This document shows positions 6,774 to 27,153 of a stretch of 28,131 nucleotides of DNA, piece by piece (the first letter of the stretch is position 1; each line of letters begins with the position of its first letter). The notes under the pieces are model-generated. The model ran no database searches. It was not told the origin of the DNA and saw only the letters and a program-made list of their open reading frames with translations. The position numbers were made by a program, and so were the translations under genes. The stretch spans positions 1 through 28,131 of the forward strand of contig CAZAIS010000001.1 of the NCBI GenBank assembly GCA_964485255.1, read 5' to 3'. This DNA is from an uncultured Acidimicrobiales bacterium. Its GTDB lineage: Bacteria > Actinomycetota > Geothermincolia > Fen-727 > Anoxymicrobiaceae.

Positions 6774-6791
6774 CCCAAAGCGCCCGCCTTC

Positions 6792-9029: not shown

Positions 9030-9046
9030 GCATCGAAGGATTCACC

Positions 9047-9751
9047 TCATCTGTCGGCTTTGCGGCCGAGCACGCAGAGGCTCACAAAACCGCTTACGGC
9101 CGCTCGGCGGACGTAAGACCTGCGGTAGCTCTCCGAGCCGGGCATCGGCCTGTGCGCAAGATATTTCCACAAATAGAGAGCCATGTAGTCCGCCACCACC
9201 AACCAGCCCCCGCATACCCGTGCTTCCGTGACAACGAAGCCCGCTTCCTCCATCATCGCGCTCACGTCGCGCAAACGGTAGTGCCTGTGTCCCGCGATCA
9301 GCCACGCCGGGTCCATGATGCAGGAGCGGACGTTCTTGCTCGGCGTTCCCAAGGCCAGGCAGCCTCCAGGTCTCGTGACCCTCGAAATCTCCCTCAGGGC
9401 GCGCGCCTCCGAGTCGACGGGCAGGTGCTCGAGCACGTCGAAAAACGTCACCACGTCGAATATCGCCTCCTCGAAAGGAAGGTCGAGGACGGAGCCTTCG
9501 ACGAAGGATGCCCGGGGTACTTTCCCGCGAGCGACCTCCAGGGCCCGCGGTTCTATGTCCAACCCCGTTACGCTGCGCGCGCGCGAAGCTGCCAGGGAAG
9601 CGAAGTCGCCGGTCCAGCACCCGACATCCAGCAAGTCGGCAGAGTTCACCACGTCGCCCACGAAGGCGGCCTTGGCCTCCTGCCGGTAGGCCTCTTTGCC
9701 GCCATCGGCGATCTCGTCGAATCTCATCTTCTTCGGTTCACGCGTTTTCAT
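9047..9751 (-). CDS. Class I SAM-dependent methyltransferase
   Basis: LLDVGCWTG motif I, GLDI, FDVVTFFDVLEHL, RVTRPGG. ATG overlaps the upstream TGA (TGATG). Confidence 0.9.
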   Translation of the reverse strand: MKTREPKKMRFDEIADGGKEAYRQEAKAAFVGDVVNSADLLDVGCWTGDFASLAASRARSVTGLDIEPRALEVARGKVPRASFVEGSVLDLPFEEAIFDVVTFFDVLEHLPVDSEARALREISRVTRPGGCLALGTPSKNVRSCIMDPAWLIAGHRHYRLRDVSAMMEEAGFVVTEARVCGGWLVVADYMALYLWKYLAHRPMPGSESYRRSYVRRAAVSGFVSLCVLGRKADR

Positions 9752-10581
9752 CAGCCGACCCCCGGGTGCCCTTTTTGAAAAACGAGGGCCATGTGGTGCG
9801 CGTACTTCTTCAAGGGACTCCTCAACAGCAGCCGATCGAGCGACGTCAACAGCGGAGACAGGAGATTGTAGAAACGCATTCCCTTAGGTGGGAACGAAGG
9901 GACCATGTCGGTGACTCCTTCACGCACGAGCGCGAGGCCGTGTCTCGCTGCGTCCTTTTCGACCTGCCGCTCCGACAAGACCAGCTCGTGGACGGGAAGG
10001 CCCAGCCTCGCCGCCAGTCTCTCCAGGTAAGCCCCCTGTCTGGGAGTCCTGAAGACAAAGAACCAGCCGCCGTCCCGCGTTACGCGTGATATCTCCGCGA
10101 GGAGCTCGCCCAGCCAATCCGGGTTCACGTGCTCGATGACCGCGTGCGCCACCACCGCATCGAACGCGCCGTCGCCGAACGGCAGGCTCCTGCCGTCGAA
10201 GCCGGTCAGGCTTATCCCGAACACCTTTCGTATCTCTTCCCAGCTCTCCGTCAGCAAGGTCGGGCGCTCCCTCTCCGCGCCGCAAGACCCCCACTCCGCC
10301 CCGTACGCCCGCTCCCTCCCGCAACCGCCGCCCGCGTCGATGTCCACGCCGCGCACATCGTGGCCATACCCCTTGAGCAATACCGCCATCAGGCCCATGC
10401 CGCATCCGACGTCGAGCACCCGGGCCGCGCCGGGCAGCCTGGCATCGGCAATCCGCGCGCACTCCCACATCCCGTTCACGTATACGTCGGACCGCCAGTC
10501 CATCCAGGCGTCCCCCAGGTCCAGTCCCTCCATGGTCCTGCGATACTCCCGTATGAGTTCCGAATAAGCGGTCTTGTCCAT
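9751..10581 (-). CDS. Class I SAM-dependent methyltransferase
   Basis: VLDVGCGMG, GVDI, FDAVVAHAVIEHV, RVTRDGG. Start moved from 10794 to ATG 10581 (MDKTAY, preceded by GGAG). Confidence 0.88.
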   Translation of the reverse strand: MDKTAYSELIREYRRTMEGLDLGDAWMDWRSDVYVNGMWECARIADARLPGAARVLDVGCGMGLMAVLLKGYGHDVRGVDIDAGGGCGRERAYGAEWGSCGAERERPTLLTESWEEIRKVFGISLTGFDGRSLPFGDGAFDAVVAHAVIEHVNPDWLGELLAEISRVTRDGGWFFVFRTPRQGAYLERLAARLGLPVHELVLSERQVEKDAARHGLALVREGVTDMVPSFPPKGMRFYNLLSPLLTSLDRLLLRSPLKKYAHHMALVFQKGHPGVG

Positions 10582-10787
10582 CTCCAGCCTCGCTCTCGCG
10601 CGGCTCCGTCGAAAGGCGAACCGCTCCCTACCGGCACCGTAGCACCGGACGTCGCCTGACCTGTTGAAAACCGCGGTCATTAAACTGTTAGCCGCGAGTC
10701 GCGCTCGAACCTTGCGCGGCCCTGCCCCCGCGGCGCAACCGCGACCCGCGGCCGCGGGTGAACGGCGTGGACGGCTTCCTGTATCAT

Positions 10788-12383
10788 ATGGCAAGAGCCA
10801 CCTGCGCTACCGGCTTGGAGTGGAACATTCGAATACAACTGATAAACCCCACGGTCACGATCTCGAAGGCCGATTACTACCAGGGCATAAGCTTCATGCC
10901 TCCGCTGGGCCTGGCGTACCTAGCGTCCGTCCTGTGCGAGGCCGGTCACGAGGTTTCTATCATCGACCGGTTAGGGGCACACCCGATGCCCGTGGAGCGA
11001 ACGGGCGACCTCTTGAGGTGTGGGATAGACGAGAGCACGGTGCTTGAGCGAATGGAGAGCTTCGCCCCCGAGCTCATAGGCATTACCTGCCCGTACACGG
11101 CAAACGCGCGCGACGCTGTCGATACGGCAAGACTTGTGAAAAGAGCGTCGCCCGGGATTCCCGTCCTTATGGGAGGGGCGCACGCTTCCGTGTGCCCGGA
11201 GGAGCTGCTCGCTGAAGAAAGCGTGGATTATGTCATCGCTGGAGAAGGCGAGGACGTAACGAAGTCCCTGGTCGCCGCCCTCGAATCGGGGGCCGAAACG
11301 TCCGCCATCGACGGACTGATGCGCATGAATGCCGACGGCGTTATATCGGGCAGCCCCGCCCACGAGCGGATCAAGGATCTGGATTCGATCCCGTTTCCCC
11401 GCAGGGACCTGCTACCCATGGAGCAGTACTTCAAGGCCCAGCAATCAGGACTCGAGAGAATAAACAACATCAGGTGGCCCAAGACTACGATGATCACATC
11501 GCGCGGATGCCCCGAGAACTGCGTGTTCTGCGCGATAAGATGCACGTGGGGCAGAAAATGGAAGGGCCGCTCTCCCGGGAACGTCGTAAACGAGATAGAG
11601 GGTCTCGTCAGGGATTTCGGCGTGAGGGAGATAGACTTCCTCGATGACAGCCTCTCTGTTTCCAGGAGCCGGCTCGAGGCGATATGCAACCTCATTATCG
11701 AGCGCGAGATAGACATCAAGTGGACTACGCCGAACGGGATCGCGATATGGTCGCTGGACGAGGATCTGCTGAAGCTGATGAAAAGGTCCGGCTGCTACCG
11801 CCTGACTTTCGGCCTGGAGTCAGGGGACAGCGACACCATTGACTTCATCCGGAAGCGCTACACTCGCGATTACGCTCAAAAGCTCATCGGATACGCGAAC
11901 CGGATCGGTCTGTGGACCATCGGCACATTCATACTCGGTTTTCCCTACGAGACGAGAGCGCAGATGGAACACACGATCCGCTTCGCGATCGATTCCGGCC
12001 TGGACCTCGCGGTGTTCTACTGCGCGGCCGCATTCCCCGGAACGGACCTTTACAAAGTGTGCGCGAGCGAGGGAATAGAGGTACCGAGGTCGGCTTCCCT
12101 GATGCTCAGCGCAATCGACTCGACCACCATGACCGCCGAGCAAATAGCCCGCGTACGCGAGGACGCCAACGGCAGGTTCGCCCGGAACCTGAGGCGACGG
12201 CCCTGGAAAGTCCTGGAGAAGATCAAGAACGTCGAGGACTGCCGGTACGCCGCCCGCGTCAGCCGCTACGCCCTCCGCCTCTCGCGGAGGTCCGCCGCCA
12301 CGCGCAGCACGACCGCGTTCCTGTATTCCGGCGATGGGGGACGGCGGGGACGCCGTTCTCGACAGCAGCGTCGGAGGGGTTGA
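10788..12383 (+). CDS. B12-binding domain radical SAM protein (class B methyltransferase-like)
   Basis: PPLGLAYLAS, MGGAHAS and GEGE in the cobalamin domain; TSRGCPENCVFC (CxxxCxxC); FGLESG; FILGFPYET. Start uncertain (ATG 10788 or slightly downstream). Confidence 0.9.
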   Translation: MARATCATGLEWNIRIQLINPTVTISKADYYQGISFMPPLGLAYLASVLCEAGHEVSIIDRLGAHPMPVERTGDLLRCGIDESTVLERMESFAPELIGITCPYTANARDAVDTARLVKRASPGIPVLMGGAHASVCPEELLAEESVDYVIAGEGEDVTKSLVAALESGAETSAIDGLMRMNADGVISGSPAHERIKDLDSIPFPRRDLLPMEQYFKAQQSGLERINNIRWPKTTMITSRGCPENCVFCAIRCTWGRKWKGRSPGNVVNEIEGLVRDFGVREIDFLDDSLSVSRSRLEAICNLIIEREIDIKWTTPNGIAIWSLDEDLLKLMKRSGCYRLTFGLESGDSDTIDFIRKRYTRDYAQKLIGYANRIGLWTIGTFILGFPYETRAQMEHTIRFAIDSGLDLAVFYCAAAFPGTDLYKVCASEGIEVPRSASLMLSAIDSTTMTAEQIARVREDANGRFARNLRRRPWKVLEKIKNVEDCRYAARVSRYALRLSRRSAATRSTTAFLYSGDGGRRGRRSRQQRRRG

Positions 12384-12434
12384 GGAAACCGGCCACGCGA
12401 TCGGGGATGGAAGGAGCGCGCCGGGAGCGGCGCG

Positions 12435-13148
12435 TCACCTGCGGGCCTTTACCGCTATGAACGCCGAGTGTCGGGGGTCCAGTTCACTCAACAGCTCCGC
12501 TATCCGGCCGCCGAGGGGAAAATAACCGTAACCCTTCAGAACTTCGACCTTGAAACCGTGGGCCTCGAGCAGGTCCACCAGGCCCCTGGGCGCGAAGATC
12601 CGCCTGTGCTGTAGCGGCAGGGCATTGCCGGCCTCCCCCCGGTGCAGTGCAAGGGGGTTGCCGAGCCCCGCGACCTTGCCGCTGATATTGCCGAGCGAGA
12701 ACGGCTGCCAGCCCATCGCTATCGCCGCCACGTTGTACCAGGCCGATATGTTCTCGGTGGATATCGCGAAAACTCCCCCGGGCTTCAGCAACCTGTACGC
12801 CTCGGCCACGAGATTGTCCGTATCATACAGGTGCTCTATGACCTGGTTCGCGATCGCGCAGTCGGCCCTTCCTTCCGGCAGGTCGATCGGCCGGTTCAGA
12901 TCGGAGACGGTCACCTTCACCCCGATGGCGCCGGCGGCGTTCGCGGCCTCCTGTTCGATCTCTATGCCGATTGCCTCAGCCGCGTGAATCGCGCCCGCCA
13001 CCCGCATGGTGTAGACGCCGTCGGCGCAGCCGAAATCCAGCAGCGTCCCGGCGCCGCTCCCCGCCAGGAACTCGATGAGCCCCAGGCGGTTGCGGTCCTG
13101 CGCTTCGATCCAGGTCCTGTGCATGTACTCCCGCAACCCTTCTCTCAC
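12435..13148 (-). CDS. Class I SAM-dependent methyltransferase
   Basis: LLDFGCADG, GIEI, ANQVIEHL, RLLKPGG. GTG start with GGAGG RBS. Confidence 0.9.
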   Translation of the reverse strand: MREGLREYMHRTWIEAQDRNRLGLIEFLAGSGAGTLLDFGCADGVYTMRVAGAIHAAEAIGIEIEQEAANAAGAIGVKVTVSDLNRPIDLPEGRADCAIANQVIEHLYDTDNLVAEAYRLLKPGGVFAISTENISAWYNVAAIAMGWQPFSLGNISGKVAGLGNPLALHRGEAGNALPLQHRRIFAPRGLVDLLEAHGFKVEVLKGYGYFPLGGRIAELLSELDPRHSAFIAVKARR

Positions 13149-13178
13149 GGCAAGTCCTCCATTCCGCCGCGCCGCACT

Positions 13179-14228
13179 TCACTGACTCCAGTTATCCCGC
13201 TCCTGCTCGCGCGGCCTGATTCGGGCTTCCACCACTCCCCAGGCGTACACAACCAGCGTAACAAGGCACGCCGGAACGTGCAGAATCCATGCTATGTCCG
13301 GCCTCCTTGTGTATCCTCTGACCGCCTGCGCGACGAGAGGGACCACCAGGAGGCAGTACGCGATGAACTTCAGGATGCCGCGGGTGCGCCCGCGGTTCGG
13401 GGCGCTCTCCCTCATTCCGCGCGCGCTGTAGTAGCTGAAATCCCGCACCCTCCTGAGTTGCTTTCGCCCGAAGACGCGCAAGCCCGTCCCGTAGAGGTGC
13501 ACTATCCCGGTCTTCACCTTCGCGAAGCGGTCGTAACCCAACGCCACCAGCCCGCTGACTACATCGACGTCGAAGAGATACTCCCCTACGTCCAGAAGCT
13601 CGAGGAGTCCCCGCCGGACCATGAAACCGTTCGCGCCCATCGTTGGAATACGGCCTGTCTGGAGCTTGACCTCCAGGTAATCGCCCCGGTCGCGCTCGTC
13701 CACCTTCAGCCCCGTCCACTTCCCCGAAAGCGCGCTCACGCGGTCGTAGCTGCCCATGAAGTAGACCAGAGGGTCGTTCATTCCCAGCAACGCGCAATAC
13801 CTCGTCAGCATGGGATCGTCCCGCCGGTACGTATACTCCAGCGGCTCCGACGCGGCGATCCCGGGGTCCGCGAAAGGCGCCGTCATGCGTCTCATCCACG
13901 ATCCGTCGGGCAGGATGTTGTCGCTGTCGATCAGGGCTACGACGTCCCGGGTGGCGGCTTTCAGCCCTGCCGCTTTTCCCGCCTCGCCGGTCTTCTTTTC
14001 GTTTTCGACGACCAGGCAGCCGTACTCTTCGGCGATCCGCAACGTCCCGTCCGTCGAGCCCCCATCCGCCACTATTATCTCGAGCGGCCCGTCGAATTCC
14101 TGCAGCCTGATGCTCTCCAGGCACGAGGATAGAACGCTCTGCGCGTTGAGAGTCGGGATTATTACGCTCACCCCGACGGGTTCAACGCCCCGGGACGAGT
14201 CTCGCTTTTTCTCCACCTCACCCGTCAT
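13179..14228 (-). CDS. GT2 family glycosyltransferase with C-terminal membrane helices
   Basis: SVIIPTLN, IIVADGGSTDGT, IDSD (DxD), GANGF, two hydrophobic C-terminal segments. Confidence 0.9.
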   Translation of the reverse strand: MTGEVEKKRDSSRGVEPVGVSVIIPTLNAQSVLSSCLESIRLQEFDGPLEIIVADGGSTDGTLRIAEEYGCLVVENEKKTGEAGKAAGLKAATRDVVALIDSDNILPDGSWMRRMTAPFADPGIAASEPLEYTYRRDDPMLTRYCALLGMNDPLVYFMGSYDRVSALSGKWTGLKVDERDRGDYLEVKLQTGRIPTMGANGFMVRRGLLELLDVGEYLFDVDVVSGLVALGYDRFAKVKTGIVHLYGTGLRVFGRKQLRRVRDFSYYSARGMRESAPNRGRTRGILKFIAYCLLVVPLVAQAVRGYTRRPDIAWILHVPACLVTLVVYAWGVVEARIRPREQERDNWSQ

Positions 14229-14230
14229 TG

Positions 14231-16552
14231 CTACCGCTCCACAATCTCGACGTTGTCTATCTGCAGCAACGCGTTTCTCATCGCGAATATCGCGAGCTCG
14301 TTGTTGCTCAACCGTGTAGCGGGGCCGCTCTTGGTGATATTCAGCTCCAGCCCGCCGGACGGCACCCTGAGGTTGCCGATCTCCACCATGGCCTCCTGGC
14401 CTTGATCCATGAGGCCGGTTGCCAGCTCTTCCCCGCTTTTCGCGCTTATCGTGACCTTGCCCCTGGAGTATGGATTCCTCAACGGTACCTTCAGTGTAAT
14501 CACTCGGTCTTCACCCGTGTAATTCTCAAGCCTGATCGTTCCCAGGCCGTCGAGCACGCGCATGGTTTCTCCTTCCCTGGCCATTATCGGCACGGATATG
14601 TTCCCAAGGTACAGGGGCAGGATGTCGGCCGGTCTTCCCTTGACCTCGTAGATGCGCGCCTGTCCGAACGGACCGTCCTCGTTGAACCTGGCGACTTCCC
14701 GGAAGCCCTCCGGAAGCCGTGACGGGTCCAGCGGCCAGCCCGCGTTCTCCTCGATCTCTCCGACGAAAACCACCGCGTGGGTCATGCCTAGCCTCTTGAG
14801 GTACGAGGGCGTCGCCGGGTCGTAAGGGTTGTAGACTGTTCGACGGGCAGCCTCACCATCGGAGTTCGCGGTCGCTCCGTTGAGCATCGGCTTCTTGAAG
14901 ACCCGCTGGTAGAACAAGAGCTGGCTGGCTAAAAACGGACCGTTCTCGTGGATCGGGTAGAACACGAGCACGGGGTCCCCCTTCATCTTATCTACCGCGG
15001 AGAAGACGCCAGGCGTATCGCTGAAGTCGAAATTCTTGAAAGGCGGAACGGGCACCATCTCTACCAGCAGAAGCGCGACGAAAAGGGTGACAACGATTAT
15101 CGAGCGGGGGCGGAAGCGGTGCGCGAGGAGGACCAGGCCGGCAGCCGCGATCACGATCAAGCAGAGCCCTACGACGACCGACCACCTGTTGTACCAGCGA
15201 AACCAGGGCGCGATCAGCGTCATGATCCTGGACGGGAGCGGGATTTCGGCCGACCCGATGGAAAAGCCCGGCTTGAGCGAAAATACGAAAGCCGAAAGGC
15301 CCGCCGCCGCGAAACCCCACATGGCCGGCGCGGCGCCGCCGCCTCCATGAGGGGCCCGGTGTTCATCCCGCGCCTCGCGAAGCTTTCTTTTCCTGCTCCG
15401 CCATTTAGAGAGAGTCAGTACCAGGCAGATGGTGGCGAGCAGGAAAACCGTCCAACCGATGTATACCGAATCGACGTAAAGAGCCTGGGTCACCTTGTGA
15501 AGCCTCCTCTGCAGCGGAGCCAGCAGAGAGTTCTTGAAGTTCGGCCTCAGGTATTGTGCCGGAGACGCGGACGCGCCGTACAAGTATTCGTCTATGCGAA
15601 GTTCGGCCGGCGTGGGGCTGGTAGGCCACCTGCCGGGAGGATTGTAGTCACTCGCGTACAGGACGAAGAACGGCAGTACCGCGATCACGAAGACGAGCAG
15701 GGCGCAAAGAGACAGCAGGGCGGTCCTCCTGTTCACCGAAAGGTGATCCCGGATCGAACGGCGCAGGCCGCCCCCCGAAGCGTCCCTCACCACGAGGTAG
15801 ACCCATCGACCGATCAGGAAGGCCGGTGTGAACACTCCCATGAAAAGCCCGAAATGCAGTGAGGTGTTGGCCACCAGTATCGCGCTCAGGGAGACGCCTA
15901 ACGCCGTCTTCCATCCGGGCTTCTCGATGAAAAGGATCAGGCAGAGGATGTAGAGAGGCATCCACTGCGTTGCGGCCAGCCCCGAGCCTATAAACATAGA
16001 ATAGTTGACGTGGAACGCGGACAGCATGAACGCTATTCCCGCGAAAAACGCTACCCGCCGGTCGTGCAGCAGATGTCGCACCAGGTAATACATCGTAACG
16101 CCCGAGAGCGCGTATCCCAGGAGCACGTCTATGTTCCATGCAACCACCTCGTTGGTGAACAGGAGGAGGAACCTCCACTCCAGGTACCCGAGAGGTTGCA
16201 CCGGAAACCCGAGCGAGCTTCCGAAGGGAGCGCCGATCAGTGGACAGAACGTCACGCTTCCGCCGTATGCGCCGGCATTCTTGTACCACCAGTTCAACCA
16301 TATCGTCCCGAGGTTGTCTCCCGGGACACCGTATATGGAACTGCTGAAGCGCGTTATGAGAGGCCAGGTCAGATAGAGTGTGAACAAAACGTAAAAAAGG
16401 ATTATCCAGAACTCGGGCCTTACGCGGGATATGCTCGCCGCCATACGACCGGCCACACCGGAGAAAGGCCTCCGGGCGCCAGCGACGGAGGCAGCCTCAG
16501 CGGCGCCGTCCGCGGCCGTGTCTTTTGCTCCAGTGTCATTCATCGCCAGCAA
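14231..16552 (-). CDS. Large multi-pass membrane protein, predicted GT-C / YfhO-like glycosyltransferase (paralog B)
   Basis: PGDNLGTIWLNWW loop, many TM helices, collinear with 6792-9029. Start TTG 16552 or ATG 16543. Confidence 0.65.
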   Translation of the reverse strand: MLAMNDTGAKDTAADGAAEAASVAGARRPFSGVAGRMAASISRVRPEFWIILFYVLFTLYLTWPLITRFSSSIYGVPGDNLGTIWLNWWYKNAGAYGGSVTFCPLIGAPFGSSLGFPVQPLGYLEWRFLLLFTNEVVAWNIDVLLGYALSGVTMYYLVRHLLHDRRVAFFAGIAFMLSAFHVNYSMFIGSGLAATQWMPLYILCLILFIEKPGWKTALGVSLSAILVANTSLHFGLFMGVFTPAFLIGRWVYLVVRDASGGGLRRSIRDHLSVNRRTALLSLCALLVFVIAVLPFFVLYASDYNPPGRWPTSPTPAELRIDEYLYGASASPAQYLRPNFKNSLLAPLQRRLHKVTQALYVDSVYIGWTVFLLATICLVLTLSKWRSRKRKLREARDEHRAPHGGGGAAPAMWGFAAAGLSAFVFSLKPGFSIGSAEIPLPSRIMTLIAPWFRWYNRWSVVVGLCLIVIAAAGLVLLAHRFRPRSIIVVTLFVALLLVEMVPVPPFKNFDFSDTPGVFSAVDKMKGDPVLVFYPIHENGPFLASQLLFYQRVFKKPMLNGATANSDGEAARRTVYNPYDPATPSYLKRLGMTHAVVFVGEIEENAGWPLDPSRLPEGFREVARFNEDGPFGQARIYEVKGRPADILPLYLGNISVPIMAREGETMRVLDGLGTIRLENYTGEDRVITLKVPLRNPYSRGKVTISAKSGEELATGLMDQGQEAMVEIGNLRVPSGGLELNITKSGPATRLSNNELAIFAMRNALLQIDNVEIVER

Positions 16553-16645: not shown

Positions 16646-16684
16646 AAGAAAAGCCAGCCTTTTCAAAAGCTGGCTTTTCTTTCT
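16646..16684 (-). terminator. Intrinsic (probably bidirectional) terminator downstream of pilA
   Basis: 13-bp perfect inverted repeat aagaaaagccagc (16646-16658) / gctggcttttctt (16669-16681) with T-rich tails on both strands, just past the pilA stop. Confidence 0.85.
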
Positions 16685-16696
16685 GAACGAACCGAT

Positions 16697-17077
16697 CTAG
16701 ATCGAATGACCGCTGACACTGCCCGGGCAACTGACCGTCGGCGGGTTCGAACCTCCTGCACCCACCAACGTATAAGTATTACCCGAGTTGGTCGCTGACG
16801 AGGCCGGGCATGTGGGGAGCTTCTTGATGTACGTCGCTACAAAAACAGACTGTACCGACGCGGCACCAGGATACGCGCCATCCTCCCTATCGGCGATGTA
16901 CGTGTTGATCGCCCCGTCAATGGTCCTCAGGTTCGCCTGGCAGGTTCTCCTCTGAGCATTCGATCTCGCCGACAGGAATACCGGTACGGCGATAGCAACA
17001 AGGATTGCGATGATTAGAATGACTATCATCAGCTCGATCAGAGTGAAACCTTCATGCCTTCCAAGCATGCGCCTCAT
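16697..17077 (-). CDS. pilA: Type IVa pilin, probable major pilin
   Basis: Class III signal MRRMLGRHEG|FTLIELMIVILIIAILVAIAVP with E5. GAGGGGGTG RBS supports ATG 17077. Has its own promoter-like region and terminator. Confidence 0.92.
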   Translation of the reverse strand: MRRMLGRHEGFTLIELMIVILIIAILVAIAVPVFLSARSNAQRRTCQANLRTIDGAINTYIADREDGAYPGAASVQSVFVATYIKKLPTCPASSATNSGNTYTLVGAGGSNPPTVSCPGSVSGHSI

Positions 17078-17117
17078 GTGATTCACCCCCTCTCGGCAAC
17101 TCTCATCTCTATTTATA

Positions 17118-17166: not shown

Positions 17167-18384
17167 TCACTTGATCATGGTGATAACCCGGAATATCGGC
17201 AGGTAGAGCGCGATGACAATCATGCCTACGGATACACCCAGGAACATCATGAGCAGCGGCTCCAGGGTGGACGTCAGGCTGTCGACCCCCGCGTTCACCT
17301 CCGAGTCGTAGAACTCGCTGACCTTACCGAGCATCACGTCAAGGGCGCCGGTCTCCTCGCCGATCGCTATCATCTGGGTGATCATCGGGGGGAATACCTC
17401 AGCGTCCTGCAGCGGCCTGGCTATCGTTTCACCCTCCTTGACGCTCGCCCTTACCCTGTCGAGCTCACGCGTCACAACCATGTTGCCTGTAGTCTCCCCG
17501 GTGATCTCCAGCGCGCCGAGGATCGGCACCCCGGAAGAAATCAAGGTGCCCAGGCTTCTCGAGAACTTCGACATCGCGGTCTTGTGAAACAGGTTTCCCA
17601 CGTAAGGCATCTTCAACTTCATCTTGTCGATGGCGTACCGGCCCTGGTCCGTTGCCTTTACCCGCCTCCATACAATCACCAGGCCTACGATGACGGCTAT
17701 TATAACCAGCCCGCCCCATCCGCCGATGAAGTGGCTGATGCCGACCAGCACCTTGGTGAAGGTGGGGAGTTCCCCTCCCATGGACTTGAACATGCTCGCG
17801 AACTTGGGAACGATGAACACGATCATGGCCGCCAGCAGGACAAGTGAGAGGCCGAGAATCGCGATCGGGTAAGTCATGGCGGACTTGACCTTCCGCCTGA
17901 TCTCGAACTCGCGCTCGAGCTGGTCGGCCACTCGCAGGAGGACATCGTCGAGCATACCGCCGAGCTCACCGGCCCTCACCATGCTCACGTAGAGGTTACC
18001 GAACGCCTCCGGGTGCTTGGATAACGCCTCGGAGAGGGAGCGGCCCGCCTCCACCTCGCGCTGGCAGTCAGTGATAATGCTCGCGAGGGAAGCGGATTCC
18101 GTCTGTTGCGCAAGGATGCTCAGGCACTTTATAAGCGGCAGGCCCGCGTTGATCATGGTGGCGAACTGGCGCGTGAAGATATTGATGTCTTCTTGCTTGA
18201 CCTTGGTACCGAATATGTGGATTTCTTTTTTACCGATGGCCTGCTTTACCTCGTCGACGCTGACGACGTAATAGCCCATCTGGCGCAGCTTCCCCGCGAG
18301 CACGTCGGCGTTATCCGCCTCGAGAGAACCCGTTATTTCGCGCCCCGTCTTGTCCCTGACCGTGTAATTAAACTGGGTAGCCAA
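17167..18384 (-). CDS. pilC: Type IV pilus inner-membrane platform protein PilC (T2SSF family)
   Basis: FTRQFATMINAGLP, YVSMVRAGELGGML, SAMTYP, IAIGEETGALD. GGAGGT spacing favours the second TTG (18384, MATQFNY). Confidence 0.95.
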   Translation of the reverse strand: MATQFNYTVRDKTGREITGSLEADNADVLAGKLRQMGYYVVSVDEVKQAIGKKEIHIFGTKVKQEDINIFTRQFATMINAGLPLIKCLSILAQQTESASLASIITDCQREVEAGRSLSEALSKHPEAFGNLYVSMVRAGELGGMLDDVLLRVADQLEREFEIRRKVKSAMTYPIAILGLSLVLLAAMIVFIVPKFASMFKSMGGELPTFTKVLVGISHFIGGWGGLVIIAVIVGLVIVWRRVKATDQGRYAIDKMKLKMPYVGNLFHKTAMSKFSRSLGTLISSGVPILGALEITGETTGNMVVTRELDRVRASVKEGETIARPLQDAEVFPPMITQMIAIGEETGALDVMLGKVSEFYDSEVNAGVDSLTSTLEPLLMMFLGVSVGMIVIALYLPIFRVITMIK

Positions 18385-18447
18385 TGTCAAACCTCCCCGA
18401 CGCGACCCGCCGGTCGCCTCGAACGGCCCTTTTATCCACTGTTCCCA

Positions 18448-18514: not shown

Positions 18515-19591
18515 CTACCTGCCCACGAGTCGCCTGAAGTCGTCCTTGTTGTGAGAGCGCGCCAGCCCGGTTTCGTAGGTGATCTGGCCCGCCCTGTAAA
18601 GCGCCGCGAGGGAGGCATCCATGGTCTGCATCCTGAGCTGCCCGCCCGACTGCATCGCCGAATAGATCTGGTGCACTCGCGCGTCGCGTATCATGTTGCG
18701 GATAGCCGAGGTCGCGATCATCACCTCCACCGCCGGGACCCTCGAGCGCCTGTCCTTGGTGGGCACGAGCTGCTGGGTTACGATAGCCTGCAACGTCGAG
18801 GCCAACTGGAGGCGCACCTGCGCCTGCTGGAACGTCGGGAAGACGTCGATGATCCTGTCGATGCTCTGCGGGGCGTCCTGCGTGTGGAGGGTGGCGAATA
18901 CCAGGTGGCCGGTTTCCGCGGCGGTCAGTGCCGTCTGGATGGTCTCGAGGTCTCTCATCTCGCCGACCAGTATGATGTCGGGGTCCTGGCGCAACGCGTA
19001 CTTGAGGGCGTTCGCAAAAGAGTGTGTGTCCGAGCCCACCTCGCGCTGGTTGACGATGCACTTCTTGTGCAGGTGCAGGAACTCGATCGGGTCCTCGATG
19101 GTGATGATATGCTCCTCGCGGCTGGAGTTGATGAGGTCCATGATGGCCGCCAGGGTGGTTGATTTGCCCTGCCCGGTGGGACCGGTCACCAATATGAAAC
19201 CCCTGGGCAGGCGCGCGAACTCCTTCACCACCATCGGGAGCATCAATTCCTCGACCGTCTTGATCCGGTAGGGAATTATCCGGAAGGCCGCGCCGACGCT
19301 GTTCCTCTGGAAGTAGGCGTTCACTCGGAAGCGGGCGCTGCCGGGCACCGAGTACGACAGGTCGAACTCGAGGTTAGTCTCCAGGGTCTCGCGCTGGCGG
19401 GCCGTCAGGATGCTGTAGACCATTTCGCGCGTGTCGTTGCTGGTGAGCCTGGGTAGGTCCATCCGCTGAAGCACGCCGTTGATGCGGAGCACCGGGGGTA
19501 CTCCAACCGTAATGTGCAGGTCAGACGCCCCCCTCTTGATGACTTCCTCCAGCATCTCATTTATATCGAGCCTCAAACTCTGCTGTGCCAC
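18515..19591 (-). CDS. pilT: Type IV pilus retraction ATPase PilT
   Basis: ASDLHITVG, GPTGQGKSTT, ITIEDPIE, ALRQDPDIILVGEMRD, AETGHLVFATLH, AIRNMIR motif. Confidence 0.96.
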   Translation of the reverse strand: MAQQSLRLDINEMLEEVIKRGASDLHITVGVPPVLRINGVLQRMDLPRLTSNDTREMVYSILTARQRETLETNLEFDLSYSVPGSARFRVNAYFQRNSVGAAFRIIPYRIKTVEELMLPMVVKEFARLPRGFILVTGPTGQGKSTTLAAIMDLINSSREEHIITIEDPIEFLHLHKKCIVNQREVGSDTHSFANALKYALRQDPDIILVGEMRDLETIQTALTAAETGHLVFATLHTQDAPQSIDRIIDVFPTFQQAQVRLQLASTLQAIVTQQLVPTKDRRSRVPAVEVMIATSAIRNMIRDARVHQIYSAMQSGGQLRMQTMDASLAALYRAGQITYETGLARSHNKDDFRRLVGR

Positions 19592-19618
19592 GACACACCT
19601 CCGGGTGTTACACCTTGC

Positions 19619-21310
19619 CTACATCACGACCCTGAGCACTTCCTCGATAGAGGTTATGCCTCGCTTTACCTTGAGCCAACCGTCATCGCGCAGGCTGGCC
19701 ATGCCCCTTTCGCGGGCGAGTCTGCCTATCTCCCTCGCGGTGGCCATGTTTACCACCGCTTTCTCAACCTCCTCGTCCACCAGCAACACCTCATAGAGCC
19801 CTATCCTGCCCCTGAACCCCGTCTGGTTGCAGAAGGGGCAGCCGTTCGAGCTGGCCTTGTACACGGTCACGGTCTCGCCGTCCTCTACCGGGAAACCGAT
19901 CTTCTCGAGGTACTCCGCCGGGTACGTCGTTTCCTCTCGGCAACGGGTGCAGAGCCGCCTGGCCAATCTCTGGCTCACCACGCTGTCCACCGCCGACGCT
20001 ATCAGGAACGGCTCGACGCCCATCTCGGTCATTCGGGTCATCGCCGATGGCGCGTCGTTGGTGTGGAGAGTACAGAGAACGAGGTGCCCGGTGAGGGCGG
20101 ACTCGATGGCCATCTTCGCGGATTCCGAGTCGCGGATCTCGCCGATCATCACGATATCGGGGTCGCACCTGAGTATGGACCTCAGGCTCGCCGCGAACGT
20201 AAGGCCGACCTTGGTATTCACCTGTACCTGGTTTGTGCCCGCGAGCTGATATTCGACCGGGTCCTCCACGGTGATGACGTTCACCTCGCGCTTGTTCAAC
20301 TCGGTCAGGGCGGCGTAGAGGGTGGTCGTCTTCCCCGAGCCTGTCGGGCCCGTAACGATGCACGTCCCGTACGGCTTCTTGAAGGATACCTCGAACTGCT
20401 TCAAAGGCTCAGGCGAAATGCCGAGTTCCGTCAGGCTCAAAAGGATACTGCTGCTGTCGAGGATTCTGAGGACTATCTTCTCGCCGTGCACGGTCGGCAC
20501 TGAAGCGACGCGGAGATCGATATGCTTGCCCGAGGCTTCCATGGCGAATCGCCCGTCCTGCGGCACCCGCCGCTCGGCGATGTTCATGTTGCCTAGGATC
20601 TTGAGCCTGGATACGATCCCCGGATGTATGCGTCTCGGTGAGCGGCGCGTCTCGCGCAGCACGCCGTCTATCCTGTAACGGATGCGAACGTCCTTCTCCC
20701 CCGGCTCTATGTGGATATCGCTGGCCCCCTCGTGGACGGCCTCTCCGATGATGAGGTTCACGTACTTGACAATAGGAGCGTCTTCCCCCGCCTCCTTGAG
20801 CACCTGCTCGTCCTCGACCTCCTCTTCGTCCTCCAGGGAGGGCAGATCCTCCAGGGCGTCGTCCATGTCCGCGGACACGTGCAGGTAACGCCCGATCGCC
20901 CCCAGGATATCGTCCTTGGTCGTCACGACCGGGATTATCTCCATCCCCGTCATGATGCGAAGGTCGTCGAGGGCGAAAACGTTGGTGGGGTCGGCCATGG
21001 CGCAGACGAGCTTGCTGTCCTGGTAGTCGATCGGGATCACCGCGTACCTCTTGGCGAGGTTCGAGTCTATCAGCGTCGCCGCGCCCGGATCGATCGCGTA
21101 GTTTGAGAGATCGACGTAACTGATGCCGATCTGCTCGGCCAGCACGGACGTAAGCTGACCTTCCGTCAACACGCCCCTGTCGATCAACACCCTGCCGAGC
21201 GATTTGCCCGTCGTAGAATGCTCCTGGAGCGCTTCGTCCAACTGCTCCTCATTGATTAGATTGTTCTGGAGCAAGAGCCGCCCCAGGCGGTCCTGCCTGG
21301 GTTTCTCCAT
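19619..21310 (-). CDS. pilB: Type IV pilus extension ATPase PilB with N-terminal MshEN-like domain
   Basis: ASDIHIEP, GPTGSGKTTT, TVEDPVEY, LRCDPDIVMIGEIRD, TLHTNDA, CTRC/CPFC Zn motif, GFRGR. Confidence 0.95.
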   Translation of the reverse strand: MEKPRQDRLGRLLLQNNLINEEQLDEALQEHSTTGKSLGRVLIDRGVLTEGQLTSVLAEQIGISYVDLSNYAIDPGAATLIDSNLAKRYAVIPIDYQDSKLVCAMADPTNVFALDDLRIMTGMEIIPVVTTKDDILGAIGRYLHVSADMDDALEDLPSLEDEEEVEDEQVLKEAGEDAPIVKYVNLIIGEAVHEGASDIHIEPGEKDVRIRYRIDGVLRETRRSPRRIHPGIVSRLKILGNMNIAERRVPQDGRFAMEASGKHIDLRVASVPTVHGEKIVLRILDSSSILLSLTELGISPEPLKQFEVSFKKPYGTCIVTGPTGSGKTTTLYAALTELNKREVNVITVEDPVEYQLAGTNQVQVNTKVGLTFAASLRSILRCDPDIVMIGEIRDSESAKMAIESALTGHLVLCTLHTNDAPSAMTRMTEMGVEPFLIASAVDSVVSQRLARRLCTRCREETTYPAEYLEKIGFPVEDGETVTVYKASSNGCPFCNQTGFRGRIGLYEVLLVDEEVEKAVVNMATAREIGRLARERGMASLRDDGWLKVKRGITSIEEVLRVVM

Positions 21311-22296: not shown

Positions 22297-22839
22297 TCAG
22301 CCGGCCCGCTCGAGGGCCTCCGCCCTCTCCATGACCAGCTCGAGCAATGCCAGCAGGACATCTTTGACGTCGGTCGGTTTCCTCGCGTCACACCTTACAA
22401 CCGCCGCGTTCCCGAGCTTCGCGATCCTATCCCGGGCGTCCTCGGCGCTCAGGCAGTCCTTCCTGTCCGCCCTGGTGAGGCCGATAACGCAGGGCCTGTC
22501 GGACATGCCCCGGAACGCCTCCAATATGCCCGCCGCCTCGTAGAACGAATCAGGCTTGCTGCCGTCCGCCAGGACTACGTAGCCCAGCATGCCCTCGGAG
22601 AGTATCTCCCACATGAAGTCGAACCGCTCCTGCCCGGGAGTCCCGTATAGATGGAGAACATAACCGTCGGGAAAGGTGATACGCCCGAAGTCCATGGCGA
22701 CAGTGGTATCGCACTTCTTTCCGCCCTTCCTCGTCTTCCTTTCGGTGGCGACCACTTCGATCTCGCTGATAGCGCTGATGAACGTGGTCTTTCCGGAGTT
22801 GAAAGGCCCGGTTACCACTATCTTGAAGACTCCGTCCAA
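22297..22839 (-). CDS. MglA/CvnD-type small Ras-like GTPase
   Basis: KIVVTGPFNSGKTTF P-loop, TTVAMDFG switch I, LYGTPGQERFDFMW switch II. TTG start with GGAGGG RBS. Confidence 0.9.
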   Translation of the reverse strand: MDGVFKIVVTGPFNSGKTTFISAISEIEVVATERKTRKGGKKCDTTVAMDFGRITFPDGYVLHLYGTPGQERFDFMWEILSEGMLGYVVLADGSKPDSFYEAAGILEAFRGMSDRPCVIGLTRADRKDCLSAEDARDRIAKLGNAAVVRCDARKPTDVKDVLLALLELVMERAEALERAG

Positions 22840-22856
22840 ACAATCCCTCCCCGCCG

Positions 22857-25208
22857 TTACATCTTCTTCAGGTCATCAATAATCTTCTTAACCGACCCCT
22901 TGTCCACCTCTTTTGACCTCCTGGCGCGGCCTTTCTTGTCTTTGGCGTCCTTCGCCCTGGTCGCCTCCCGGTCTTTCTCTGTTATATGCCGCCTTTTCTC
23001 CTTCACGCCTCCCGCGAGCTCCAGCAGTTCCTGCTCGAGCTCAAACGTCTCGAGGTCGACCAGGCTGGTCCCGGCGCCGCGCTTGCCGCGTACCTGCAAA
23101 CCGAAATCCTCTTCATCCTCGCTCGAGGCCTCGGCCCCGGTCTCGGACTCCTCCTCGGCGAGGACTGTTTCTTCTTCGACGCCGGGCCGGGAGGATATTG
23201 CGAAATCGTCCTCGAAGACCGGCTCCCGCCGGGGCGCGGCGGATTCCTCCGGCTCGCGCGGCTTTTCCTCCTTCGCGGTCTTGCCACCCGTAATCTCGCG
23301 AAGCGTATCCATCTCGTCGAAGTACGCGTCGGCGGCCTGCTTGCCGGCGGCCGGCGTCATCTCCGGATCCAGGAAGGCCGCGGCGGGCTTCTCCTGCCGC
23401 GCCGGAGCGTCCTCCAGAGCCACCTGCCCGGGCTCCTCCGAGACCGGTTCGGCTTCGAAGGTGACAGTCTCGGCCTCGTCCGGAGCCTCGACGGTGAAGG
23501 CGGCGGGCCCGTCATCCAGGACAACCGCCCCGGCGTCGGCGCCGATCGACTCCTCCTCCACCTGCGCTTCAGCGGTCTCGCCGAACACGACCTCTTCGCC
23601 TGCCTCTTCCTCCAGCTCGATCCCGGCAGTCAGCTCATCTTCCTCGACCCGCAACTCGGCCGGCTCCCGGGTCAGCTCCTCGATCGTGTCGATCTCTTCC
23701 ATTTCCTCGAACCGGGCAGGCTCTCCGGCTGACCGGGCAGCTTCCTCCTCGTCGGCATCCTCCGTTTCCCGAGCCGCCTCCACGGGCTCTTCGCCCTCGA
23801 AGGCGGCCGGCTGCCTGCGTTCGTCGATGGGGATTACCTCGGCCTCCTCGACGTCGGTTGCGGAAATCTCCAGTTCCTCCGATTCCTCTATCGCAAGCGG
23901 CGGGACGCCTTCATCCCTCGCGACGGCCGCATCCTCGAGCTGAAAGACCTCCGCCTGCTCTCCACCGAAGGCCGTCTCCCCCGCATCCCGGGAAGCCACG
24001 GGCTCGGGCTCAGCCGCCTGTTCGACGAGCTCGGGCTCCGCTCGAGCGGCCTCCGCGACAGGAGGCTCGGCCTCGATCTCGGACCCTGCATCAATCGCGA
24101 TATCCTCGGCGGTTACAACCTCCTCGGTCTCGCCGAGCTCGACAACGGGAGTCCCCTCTTCGAGGTCCACATCCTGGAGCGCGTCAGGTCCCGACTTGAA
24201 CTGGATGACACGGCCCGTGGAACCCTGAGCCCCGGCGGGCTCGTCCTCGACGTGCGCCTCTTGAGGCTCCACGATTGGATACGTCGGCTGATCGAAGGCG
24301 AGCAACTCCTCCCTGCTCAGATCGCGGGATTTAGGGGTGACCTGCAGGAGTTGCTCTATCTCTTCTTCCGTGGGTATGCGCCCCTGGTCCCCGGAATCGT
24401 CCAACAGGGGTATCTCCCCGGCGTCCGGCACCTGATCGAGCCCGGCTTCAGACCCCTGAGGCTCCATCTCCTCCAGGCCCGAGAGCGCGATCTCTCTGGG
24501 GCTTCCGGCATCCTCGTCGACAGCCGGTTCCCCGGCGTACGCCTGCGCTTCGACTTCCTGCTCCATCGTAACGTAGTTGGCGGCGGCCGGTGGAACATCG
24601 TCCAATCCCACCGTGGCCGCTTCCTCCGAAACGGAGGCCTCCGGGTCCCCCTCATAGCCGCCTTCAGCCTCGGCGGCCTCCGGCTCCAGATCCAACTGTA
24701 CACTCTCCGCCGTCGCTTCGTCCCTCGCGTCGGCTTCTTCCGCGACCATGGGGGAGAGTTCCTCCAGGATGAATGAATCCTCCGCCGCCACTTCCTCTTC
24801 TGTCCCCGGCTCCGCCTCGAGCCGGCCGGTTTCACTGGCGACCGCTTCGGCTGCGGCCGGTTCCTCCCCGGACTCTTGAATCTCCCGCTCGCCGGGCTCC
24901 GCCTCCTCCTCGTCCGGATGATCGGCAGCGCCCTTGTGTGACAGCCTCCTGCCGCCCCCGCGCAGTCTCGTCAGGTGGCCGGCCCACTCGAGAGGAATGT
25001 CATCGGGTTCCTCGTACCCGGCAGCCTCATCGAGCGTCTCTTCGGCCGCCTCGTCAGGCGACGCTTCGGATTCATGCTCTTGAACGAACTCGACCTTCTT
25101 TTTGTCCTCGGTCTCCTTGAAGGCCAGCAGGCGGTCGTTGTCGGACGCTTCCTTGAGCGCCAGGGACTTGTAATAGTCAACCAGGCTCTGTCCAGGCGCG
25201 GGTTCCTC
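22857..25208 (-). CDS. Acidic low-complexity region in frame with the upstream DUF4388 gene, probably its C-terminal part beyond an internal TAG
   Basis: No stop from 25208 to 22860 and same frame as 25209-26474. The first canonical start is only at 24791 with a poor RBS. E/A/D/P-rich, ending in an amphipathic helix (SVKKIIDDLKKM). Confidence 0.7.
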   Translation of the reverse strand, partial: EEPAPGQSLVDYYKSLALKEASDNDRLLAFKETEDKKKVEFVQEHESEASPDEAAEETLDEAAGYEEPDDIPLEWAGHLTRLRGGGRRLSHKGAADHPDEEEAEPGEREIQESGEEPAAAEAVASETGRLEAEPGTEEEVAAEDSFILEELSPMVAEEADARDEATAESVQLDLEPEAAEAEGGYEGDPEASVSEEAATVGLDDVPPAAANYVTMEQEVEAQAYAGEPAVDEDAGSPREIALSGLEEMEPQGSEAGLDQVPDAGEIPLLDDSGDQGRIPTEEEIEQLLQVTPKSRDLSREELLAFDQPTYPIVEPQEAHVEDEPAGAQGSTGRVIQFKSGPDALQDVDLEEGTPVVELGETEEVVTAEDIAIDAGSEIEAEPPVAEAARAEPELVEQAAEPEPVASRDAGETAFGGEQAEVFQLEDAAVARDEGVPPLAIEESEELEISATDVEEAEVIPIDERRQPAAFEGEEPVEAARETEDADEEEAARSAGEPARFEEMEEIDTIEELTREPAELRVEEDELTAGIELEEEAGEEVVFGETAEAQVEEESIGADAGAVVLDDGPAAFTVEAPDEAETVTFEAEPVSEEPGQVALEDAPARQEKPAAAFLDPEMTPAAGKQAADAYFDEMDTLREITGGKTAKEEKPREPEESAAPRREPVFEDDFAISSRPGVEEETVLAEEESETGAEASSEDEEDFGLQVRGKRGAGTSLVDLETFELEQELLELAGGVKEKRRHITEKDREATRAKDAKDKKGRARRSKEVDKGSVKKIIDDLKKM

Positions 25209-26474
25209 CTACTTGGCCCGCACCTCCGGCTCGAGGTCCTGGTCATGAATAATGAGACTTTCCTCTTCCCTTACCTCCGGCTCCGGCTCGTCCGCCGGCT
25301 CGCGCTTCTCCTCCGCTTCGGTAGACGCCTCTTCATCCAGTCGCTCCTTCCGCGCGGCGGACGTGTGAATCGACTTCCTGGTCTTGCGCCTGGACTTCTT
25401 GCGCTTGCGGCCGCCGTCGTCGAGGTCAACCTCGTCGCCGGTGACCTCCTCCACCAATACCTCTTCATCCGCTTCGCCGAGGGTTATCTCTTCCACGGGC
25501 TTCTTCCTGCCGGCCGTGGACTTGCGCCTGGACTTCGGGGCCTTGGCCTCCTCCACCTCCGGTTCGGGAGCCGCGGCGGCGTCCCGCCCGACGGGAGCTT
25601 CCGCCCCCGCGGGCTCGGCCTCCGCGGGCTCCGCCACCGTGGCATCCACTGGCTCCAGGGGAGCTTCGCTCGCGCCCGGGGCGCCGGCGGGCTCCTCTTC
25701 CTCCATCTTCTCGATCTCTTCCTCCAGAACGCCGGGAACGGTGTCCGCGGCCCGGGCCTCCTCCTCGGTCAGGACCACGAGACCGGCGGTCACAAGCCCG
25801 TACAGCGCTTTGCATGTCACCAGCGCGCTCTGTCCGCTCTTCTCTATGATGTCGCGAACGCCGCTGCTTCCGTCCACGTGGTAGAGGACCAGCCATTCCT
25901 CGCTGGTAAGGTTGATGTCCGTGGCGTCCTTTCCGGGGATCTTTGTCATCTTGAAGACCGAGTCGAGCGACGGCACCTTCTTCTCGATCTGGTACCACTC
26001 GTCTAGCCTCCGGCTGCCTTCCATGATGAGGTCCTCGGTGGTCATCGAGAGGCCAATGTCCTCCTCGGGAAAGATCTGGTTGGGGTCGAAATCGAACTCC
26101 CCCTCGGTCCAGCGCAACAGGTGGAAGACGGCATCCCTTATCTGTTCCTCGACGAAGACCTCGAGTGATTCTCGGCTCAGGTAACCCATCTCGACGAGGA
26201 TGTTGCCGAGCCTCTGTCCTTTCCGGGTCGTCTTCTGCAGATCGAGCGCCTCGTCGATCTGCTCCTCTGAAACCATGCCTGATTCCGTGAGCCTGCGGCC
26301 GAGTGGAGGCCTCTTCCAGTTATGTGTCGCAAAGAAGACGTTGCCGTTTCTGAAGCAGACGTAGCCCTTCGCGTCTCCATTGGTGATGTTGAGAGTTCCG
26401 TTCTTCTTCCCGAAATGGATCAACTGAAACAAATCTGGAAGGCTGAAATCCCGGAGGCTTCCTTTAAGAGGCAT
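25209..26474 (-). CDS. DUF4388 (PATAN) domain protein with embedded MshEN-like motif and acidic tail
   Basis: [49 protein letters not shown] are typical of DUF4388. Ends at TAG 25211-25209. Confidence 0.85.
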
Positions 26475-26489
26475 TGCGTCCCTGCCAGT

Positions 26490-26888
26490 CTATTCGTACT
26501 CCACCTGGAGGTGTGATTCTATGATGGCGGCAATCGCCTTGGCCGCGTTTCGAATGTCGTACAGGACGAGGCCGAGCTTGCTTCCCCGCCTTACTATAGC
26601 GTTCAGAACCGCGTCCTCCCCCGCGGAGAGCAGAAACACGTAACCGTCGGTGCCCTCGACGAAGACCTGCGCCAGATCGCCGCGTCCCAGCTCCTGGGCC
26701 GTCCTTTCCCCCAGGCTCAGAAGGGCCGCCGACATCGCCCCCAGGCGGTCCTCCTCGTAACCGCCCGGAAGGACGGAGGCCATGACGAATCCGTCCATGC
26801 TCACGACAGCGGCCGCGTCAATCTCCTGTGTTTTCTCCAATAAGCCCCTAAGGGCATCCTGGAGCTCGTTCTGCTGGGCACCGTCCAA
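26490..26888 (-). CDS. Roadblock/LC7 domain protein (MglB-like)
   Basis: AAVVSMDGFVMAS, DRLGAMSAALLSLGERTAQELGRG, VFVEGTDGYV, KLGLV. GGGAGGT RBS supports TTG 26888. Confidence 0.9.
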   Translation of the reverse strand: MDGAQQNELQDALRGLLEKTQEIDAAAVVSMDGFVMASVLPGGYEEDRLGAMSAALLSLGERTAQELGRGDLAQVFVEGTDGYVFLLSAGEDAVLNAIVRRGSKLGLVLYDIRNAAKAIAAIIESHLQVEYE

Positions 26889-27008
26889 GCGTTTTACCTC
26901 CCTGCCCGGTTTTTCGCAGGCGAAGGTGCAAGAGGGCTTCGAAAACACGACGCGGCCATACCACGCGTGAAAAAAGCCCGCCCTCCGTGATTGCGTCTCT
27001 AGGAGTTA

Positions 27009-27017
27009 ATTCTATCA
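27009..27017 (-). promoter_or_regulatory. Extended -10 promoter (TGnTAGAAT) upstream of the second Roadblock gene
   Basis: Minus strand TGaTAGAAT in a short AT-rich patch of the intergenic region. Confidence 0.5.
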
Positions 27018-27120
27018 TAGCGCGGGCTCCGTCTCGCGCCGTTGCTCCCGGGGTCGTAAGGCTCTCGGGCCCAACATCGGCCGCGACGCGGCGCGTAGAG
27101 CCTTCCACCGGTATGCCGTC

Positions 27121-27153
27121 CGCTCACGCCCGCCCTGAAGCCCCGCGTGAGCG
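27121..27153. other. GC-rich stem-loop downstream of the first Roadblock gene
   Basis: 9-bp perfect inverted repeat cgctcacgc / gcgtgagcg with no U-tract. Confidence 0.45.

Follow-up and report, generated by a model that had tools for sequence, protein, structure and literature searches.

A conserved Cys3His signature suggests a metal-clamped head in a small, probable major type IV pilin from an uncultured actinobacterium

The window analysed here, a complete contig of 28,131 nucleotides from an uncultured Acidimicrobiales bacterium (GenBank assembly GCA_964485255.1, contig CAZAIS010000001.1; Actinomycetota, Anoxymicrobiaceae in the GTDB lineage), carries a small prepilin gene on its minus strand at positions 16697–17077, and this gene and its product are the subject of this report. 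Translation from the ATG at 17075–17077 to a TAG stop at 16697–16699 yields a prepilin of 126 residues, which consists of the 10-residue class III leader MRRMLGRHEG and a mature pilin of 116 residues, FTLIELMIVILIIAILVAIAVPVFLSARSNAQRRTCQANLRTIDGAINTYIADREDGAYPGAASVQSVFVATYIKKLPTCPASSATNSGNTYTLVGAGGSNPPTVSCPGSVSGHSI. The leader (17048–17077, minus strand, as read from the sequence) is basic and ends in Gly at position −1, the cut falling before Phe1; with Glu5 present, this is a textbook class III signal peptide. Together with the hydrophobic N-terminal helix these features identify a type IV pilin, and the prepilin matches PF07963 (N_methyl; E = 7.6e-8) and scores 31.6 bits against TIGR02532, for which the cutoff is 16.3. 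A mechanically compiled list of open reading frames (ORFs) also offers an upstream ATG at 17122, which would give 141 residues. We place the start at ATG 17077 because a Shine–Dalgarno sequence, GAGGGGGTG (17084–17092, minus strand, read from the sequence), lies 6 nt 5′ of it, and because both the 126-residue database entry and all homologues begin there.

The pilin is the last gene of a pilB–pilT–pilC–pilin run on the minus strand. Immediately upstream lies pilC (17167–18390; PF00482, E = 1.1e-61), encoding a platform protein with two T2SSF domains. It is preceded by pilT, for a retraction ATPase of 358 residues (18515–19591; PF00437, E = 3.4e-49), and by pilB, for an extension ATPase with an MshEN domain (19619–21310; PF00437, E = 6e-136; PF05157, E = 6e-20). 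Two further genes of the same strand, pilD for the prepilin peptidase/N-methyltransferase (1629–2675; PF06750, E = 1.4e-31; PF01478, E = 2e-10) and pilM (55–1116; PF11104, E = 1e-46), bring all five components by which we recognized type IV pilus assembly machinery (pilD, pilM, pilB, pilT and pilC) into the window. The presence of pilT and pilM in the gene content argues for a retractile pilus rather than a secretion system. A six-frame scan of the 28-kb window revealed no class III signal-peptide gene besides the pilin. Directly past the pilin stop codon, at 16646–16681 on the minus strand, the RNA can form a terminator-like hairpin with a 16-bp perfect stem, a tetraloop and a U-rich tail. 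Direct RNA folding gave it an energy of −28.5 kcal/mol (z −3.3), a stability reached by 0 of 200 shuffled sequences; a simple consensus terminator scan did not pick it up.

Numbered from Phe1, the mature pilin contains three cysteines in total, C36, C80 and C107, and its globular part contains a single histidine, H114, the second histidine of the prepilin lying in the cleaved leader. These four residues are the proposed metal ligands. C36 (codon 16940–16942, minus strand as for the other three) is in helix alpha1-C, within the motif T-C-Q-A-N-L-R-T; C80 (16808–16810) belongs to the motif K-x-x-P-x-C-P; C107 (16727–16729), within V-S-C-P, comes just past the last predicted strand; and H114 (16706–16708) is the third residue from the C terminus, in G-H-S-I. 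An AlphaFold2 (AF2) model of the pilin (predicted local distance difference test, pLDDT, 83.8) has a long alpha1 helix at residues 13–63 and only a short beta hairpin. A truncated, head-only model reached a pLDDT of 86.4.

The four residues are strongly conserved. A word-indexed search returned 1025 homologues, and a profile search run exhaustively over 1.84 billion cluster representatives contributed 147 further, more diverse sequences. Among the best 120 homologues (50–67% identical), C36 and C80 are each present in 120/120, C107 in 118 and H114 in 117. In an alignment of 115 homologues with a mean column identity of 41%, the same residues (C46, C90, C117 and H124 in prepilin numbering) stand among only 18 invariant columns, the others of which fall mostly in the N-terminal helix; G10, F11, T12 and E15, in that same numbering, are invariant or nearly so in the homologues. 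Single-domain family members pooled from two independent searches number 244, of which 215 show the C-C-C-H order by motif and 210 have C36, C80, C107 and H114 all in register. Exactly three cysteines occur in 180 of the 215 motif-bearing members, and the histidine stands 2 residues from the C-terminal end in 128 of them. Across the family, the spacing between the third cysteine and the histidine varies between 0 and 13 and is most often 6; 18 members have a spacing of 2, as does the Clostridioides difficile pilin PilJ discussed below. Judged from these alignments, the four-residue pattern is far beyond chance.

Departures from the pattern are also structured. C80 is replaced by Glu (P-x-E-P) in six members and by His in one, with C36, C107 and H114 kept in all of them; C107 is missing in five to seven members, which end in H-x-H-[FY] instead; and a fourth cysteine takes the place of H114 in two (TCNAAGC and VCNGCG). 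All four residues are lost jointly in two members, and the remaining exceptions are mostly truncated or frameshifted ORFs. Such exchanges among Cys, His and Glu, combined with all-or-none loss, argue for a metal site rather than a disulfide, which predicts a joint loss of C80 and C107 that is not seen. The original prediction, made from the DNA letters, had placed C36, C80, C107 and H114 in a mature pilin of 116 residues, and direct reading of the minus-strand ORF agrees. Its remark that an odd number of cysteines does not fit a simple disulfide gains from the substitution pattern, which argues against a disulfide plus a free cysteine, and the conservation in orthologues that it had proposed to check holds for the histidine (117 of the 120 close homologues) and for the complete set (210 of 244 members).

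The original prediction had likened the protein to PilJ of C. difficile. We retrieved the PilJ sequence by translating published pilJ polymerase chain reaction primers (PMC9556784), matching the resulting peptide to chain 4ixj_A and applying a degenerate DNA pattern to C. difficile genomes. Mature PilJ has cysteines only at positions 36, 81 and 111 and a histidine at 114, so that the residue numbers given in the prediction, C36/C81/C111/H114, agree with those of the recovered gene. Homologues of PilJ down to 27–35% identity have the same cysteines only, and in them H114 is the sole invariant histidine and H125 is not conserved. In the crystal structure that Piepenbrink et al. are said to have described (J Biol Chem 2014; PDB 4IXJ), these four residues reportedly coordinate a structural zinc ion in the N-terminal domain.

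Alignments connect the two proteins through their cysteines. BLASTP of the mature pilin against mature PilJ gave E = 2e-10 and paired C36 with C36 and P-T-C80 with P-K-C81, followed by T-Y in both. A family profile restricted to the globular part (mature residue 26 to the end) scored 21.1 bits on the globular part of PilJ, where none of 2000 shuffles exceeded 9.1 bits, and aligned C36, E-P-K-C81, T-Y87 and V-T-C111 of PilJ. Weaker support comes from an hhalign comparison of the two head-domain alignments (E = 1.5e-4), which covers the first two ligands. The pilin thus has cysteines in register with those near 36, 81 and 111 of PilJ, by alignment, and a histidine shortly after the third, through the spacing variants of its family. 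The three comparisons support homology to PilJ, and the analogy holds at the level of sequence. The predicted likeness accordingly stands for the three aligned cysteines and the shared motifs; it does not extend to an aligned histidine, to the PilJ family model PF22473 or to a Foldseek match with 4ixj.

On balance, we favour the reading that a deep-branching, anaerobic lineage of actinobacteria builds a retractile type IV pilus with this protein as its probable major pilin, and that the head of the protein is clamped by one metal ion per subunit, most likely Zn2+. As to the parts of this proposal, the conservation pattern makes it likely that a metal site is present; by analogy, the metal would probably be zinc; and the gene's surroundings make it quite likely that the protein is the major pilin. 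After membrane insertion, PilD would remove the 10-residue leader, and the periplasmic or extracellular part of ~90 residues would fold around one metal ion, with a very small globular head of about 60 residues after helix alpha1. Four ligands would form the tetrahedral site: C36 on helix alpha1-C, C80 where the alpha-beta loop ends, C107 past the last strand and H114 in the C-terminal tail. Bound there, the ion would hold both this tail and the hairpin against the helix, and the clamp would take the role of the D-region disulfide of type IVa pilins, of the Ca2+ of GspG pseudopilins or of the zinc reported for the N-terminal domain of PilJ. As the main building block of the fibre, the pilin would bring one metal ion with every subunit. 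We regard as very improbable a more far-reaching view, in which the metal centre would be more than a brace: with one thiolate-rich metal site per subunit, or roughly one for every nanometre of its length, the fibre could serve, in anoxic habitats rich in metal, as a sink for metal outside the cell, as a metal scavenger or as a redox-active wire, and the alpha1-C cysteine clamp might be an ancestral stabilizer shared with DUF1559 proteins.

The assignment as major pilin, which the original prediction had made of an apparent major subunit, draws on the position of the gene after pilB–pilT–pilC, on its being the only pilin gene in 28 kb, on a conserved gene order and on the presence of larger pilin-like genes elsewhere in a related locus, as well as on the strong Shine–Dalgarno sequence and a private terminator. 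The order common to relatives is Roadblock, PatA_N, small GTPase, aroE, pilB, pilT, pilC, pilin and a membrane protein of ~750 residues, with one to five pilin copies in tandem at these loci (2–5 in some). One relative, locus L024, encodes a PilM that is 82% identical and has one small C3H pilin after pilC. Downstream of its pilMNO–aroC–aroKB–aroQ genes, at 19394–21064 of that locus, lie three pilin-like genes, the third truncated by the end of the locus; the products of the two complete ones measure 178 and 188 residues in mature form and have no or one cysteine. From their arrangement, these genes past pilMNO are likely to encode the minor pilins of the same system. The gene order and the layout of L024 support, but do not prove, the role of the small pilin as major subunit.

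Several results weigh against the proposal as a whole. The correspondence of the pilin histidine with H114 of PilJ was drawn by eye through the C-x2-H spacing variants, with no alignment tool placing it there, and the globular-part profile set the family histidine on H125 of PilJ rather than on H114. PF22473 (PilJ_Pilin), on which PilJ scores 166 bits, did not match the pilin or four of its homologues even at E = 10. Foldseek searches of the PDB with the full and head-only AF2 models did not return 4ixj; the matches obtained were weak (E = 0.08–1.4) and were to the S. sanguinis 8pfb and P. aeruginosa 1oqw pilins. The scant regular secondary structure of the modelled head may put the pilin below the sensitivity of Foldseek. 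Searches of the PDB with the protein, the full-length profile, the head-only profile, a Bacillota member and the consensus likewise gave no significant match to PilJ, the best being 4ixj at E = 1.3 with the family-consensus query. The full-text literature searched yielded no statement on the zinc ligands of PilJ, and no RNA run was found to contain the pilin gene. The Glu variants at C80 may, moreover, echo the older Asp of the GspG motif P-x-D-P-W-G rather than represent a ligand swap.

Three other accounts compete with a zinc-clamped major pilin. The protein could bind no metal at all, a C80–C107 disulfide of the D-region type stapling the C-terminal segment while C36 and H114 are conserved for packing or modification. 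Two cysteines ~27 residues apart in the C-terminal half do resemble a classical pilin disulfide, and in classical pilins and pseudopilins the C-terminal region is indeed braced, through a disulfide or through Ca2+ (PMC4376143). A classical D-region disulfide is recognized by a cysteine pair that is gained and lost together; here three cysteines are conserved, one of them on alpha1, and this helix cysteine, C36, varies no more than the other two. Losses of C80 and of C107 are independent of each other: C107 persists in members where C80 has given way to Glu, His, Ala or Gly, and C80 persists in members that have gained HxH and lack C107. Three is also the dominant number of cysteines (180 of 215), the habitats are anoxic, and PilJ, in whose crystal structure zinc is said to be bound, shares the three cysteines. 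With this evidence we consider the disulfide account very unlikely. A metal site that holds Fe, Ni, Co, Cu or Cd in place of zinc, and that is functional in a redox-active, metal-scavenging or sensing capacity, strikes us as distinctly unlikely, if less so. The Cys3His, Cys2His2 and Cys4 variants of the family can bind Fe, Co, Ni, Cu(I) and Cd too, landfill and digester habitats are metal-rich and sulfidic, which limits free zinc, and the window contains B12-radical S-adenosylmethionine (SAM) and ferredoxin genes, albeit with no specific link to the pilin. Against this, Cys3His sites that brace a small domain are typically structural zinc sites, the closest precedent, PilJ, reportedly binds zinc, and the locus encodes no metal chaperone or redox partner.

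The remaining account accepts the metal site but makes the protein a minor pilin or pseudopilin, the main subunit of the fibre being encoded outside the 28-kb contig; this too seems unlikely to us, although somewhat more conceivable. The window is the whole contig, and the rest of the genome is out of view. PilJ itself is a low-abundance pilin (PMC4471445, PMC13234629), the best family models, GspG and ComGC, both stay below their cutoffs, and several tandem paralogues occur in some relatives. On the other hand, major pilin genes are typically small, lie directly after pilBTC and have a strong Shine–Dalgarno sequence and a terminator of their own, as does this gene. The other pilin-like genes within the 21 kb of L024 are larger, encode no or one cysteine and are clustered in the manner of minor pilins, and the pilC-adjacent pilins read in relatives, which cover part of the tandem copies, all belong to this family.

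The family to which the zinc-clamped pilin would belong is broad. Its closest members were found in metagenome bins of actinobacteria that bear the names Ca. Geothermincola, Ca. Anoxymicrobium japonicum and Ca. Aquicultor, and metagenomes of landfill, sludge and anaerobic digesters contain near-identical DNA. These habitats are reducing, as is that of C. difficile, and disulfides would be unreliable there, which makes a redox-independent clamp a sensible alternative. The C3H unit is also found in pilins named from Bacillota, and roughly 50,000 pilins match the profile at E below 1e-10. As far as sequence can tell, the feature is less singular than first described and defines a very large uncharacterized pilin family. 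Of the 120 closest homologues, 15 (for example P0030, P0056 and P0092) carry a precomputed assignment to Pfam family PF26697.1, under which number the family may thus have been defined by curators already; PF26697 was not found in the literature searched. Nor did that literature contain a description of the single-domain family or of zinc-binding major pilins, and sequence search of the PDB gave no solved structure for the single-domain family.

A C...C...C-x(2)-H unit also occurs outside cleavable pilins (proteins P0135, P0144, P0156, P0189, P0267, P0214 and P0227). A Ca. Riflebacteria protein with an ordinary signal peptide has it four times in tandem, proteins of ~600 residues carry it at the C terminus after a single membrane helix, and elsewhere it follows an N-terminal CxxC...CxxC zinc-ribbon segment with an anchor that is not cleaved.

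Other genes of the window surround the pilus genes. Between pilD and the pilin lies an island of ~13.8 kb (2752–16552) that encodes two GT-C glycosyltransferases (a PMT_2 protein and a TMEM260-like O-mannosyltransferase with tetratricopeptide repeats), one GT2 glycosyltransferase, three SAM methyltransferases and a B12-radical SAM methyltransferase-like enzyme. It also encodes two large unannotated proteins of 745 and 773 residues, of which the larger is apparently polytopic and matches YfhO faintly. From its gene content, the island is a candidate pilin glycosylation system. In L024 the pilin and pilD are only ~2.4 kb apart, yet the membrane protein of ~750 residues right after the pilin is kept in other relatives. 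Modification of the pilin cysteines (thioether formation or methylation) by the nearby B12-radical SAM and methyltransferase enzymes was considered and set aside; nothing linking them was found, and L024, which has no island between its pilin and pilD, nevertheless retains the C3H motif in its pilin.

Upstream of aroE–pilB, at 22297–27611, is an MglA/MglB-like module whose gene order is conserved in relatives and which comprises two Roadblock/LC7 proteins, a DUF4388/PatA_N protein and a small Ras-like GTPase. The PatA_N protein is encoded by one ORF of 1212–1258 residues in relatives and by ORFs of 421 and 644 residues here, of which only the last 86 residues align; the difference may reflect a frameshift, a real split or divergence. 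At the right edge (27635–27937) a small ORF encodes a 4Fe-4S dicluster ferredoxin and shows no clear connection with the genes of the pilus.

Type IV pilins are usually described as stabilizing the C-terminal part of their head by disulfides in the type IVa pili of diderms, Ca2+ in pseudopilins and hydrogen-bond networks in C. difficile PilA1, with the zinc of PilJ as a one-off of a minor pilin. Should the present proposal be correct, a Cys3His clamp would be widespread among the major pilins of anaerobic lineages (Actinomycetota, Bacillota and others), and whole filaments would be stoichiometric metalloprotein polymers. Piliation would then depend on metal supply, which raises a question of metal economy. 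For annotation, C36 / P-x-C / C-x(2-8)-H close to the C terminus can serve as a marker. For the structural biology of pili, a family that has no PDB structure would offer a very small (~90-residue), predicted metal-dependent head domain for study.

Among known systems, the major pilins of S. sanguinis and T. thermophilus give the best sequence matches in the PDB (PilE1/PilE2, 8pfb, and PilA4/PilA5, 6xxd and 8qqj, respectively). They are likewise small and encoded beside pilBTC-type machinery; the likeness in sequence is limited to helix alpha1, and S. sanguinis PilE1, the only one of these compared residue by residue, has no cysteine aligned at position 36. A cysteine at mature position 36 is shared by the DUF1559 (PF07596) proteins of Planctomycetota, Verrucomicrobiota and Hydrogenedentes, in the alpha1-C motif [ST]-C-x-[SN]-N-x-[KR]. 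This motif was found in 73 of 113 matches of a PilJ search (proteins P0325–P0398), a sample biased by the query. The heads of DUF1559 proteins are much larger (200–350 residues) and their cysteine counts variable, and from these sequences the helix cysteine may be far more widespread among pilin-like proteins.

Of the family models, GspG/PulG (TIGR01710, PF08334) matches best, over the helix and the alpha-beta loop. At 47.4 bits the score is below the equivalog cutoff of 88.85, and no secretin or GspL/M was seen in the locus, which does not place the pilin in a type II secretion system; for ComGC (NF040999) the score is 47.1 bits against a cutoff of 75, and PilT is present. In the pilin, Y-[IL]-[KR]-x-x-P-x-C-P-x-G-x-x-Y is the counterpart of the GspG motif YIRRLPQDPWGSDY, and C80 occupies the position of the Asp in P-x-D-P-W-G of GspG. 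Both proteins are small, and in both a metal would replace the C-terminal disulfide: Ca2+ in the pseudopilins (PMC4376143) and the proposed clamp in the pilin. The ligands are Asp and backbone oxygens in GspG and, by our proposal, Cys and His in the pilin, and the pilin locus has PilT and PilM, unlike the secretion system of GspG. C. difficile PilA1, which has no cysteine, is stabilized by other means (PMC4834066).

PilJ is the closest counterpart. It shares with the pilin the class III signal peptide, Phe1, Glu5 and the motifs T-C-x-x-N, P-x-C, T-Y and V-[ST]-C, and its residues at 36, 81, 111 and H114 compare with 36, 80, 107 and H114 here. The spacing from the last cysteine to the histidine is 2 in PilJ and 6 in the pilin. 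PilJ has 262 residues and a dual-pilin fold (PMC4471445) with a second, C-terminal pilin-like domain, whereas the pilin has 116 residues in one domain that ends 2 residues past the histidine; PF18223 (PilJ_C) does not match it, and its architecture is not that of a dual pilin. In the pilus, PilJ is a low-abundance, intercalated subunit (PMC4471445, PMC13234629), whereas the pilin described here is encoded at the position of a major pilin. What is new is thus the proposal that a Cys3His clamp of the PilJ type occurs in a minimal pilin with a single domain, probably a major pilin; given the precedent of PilJ, this is no conceptual surprise.

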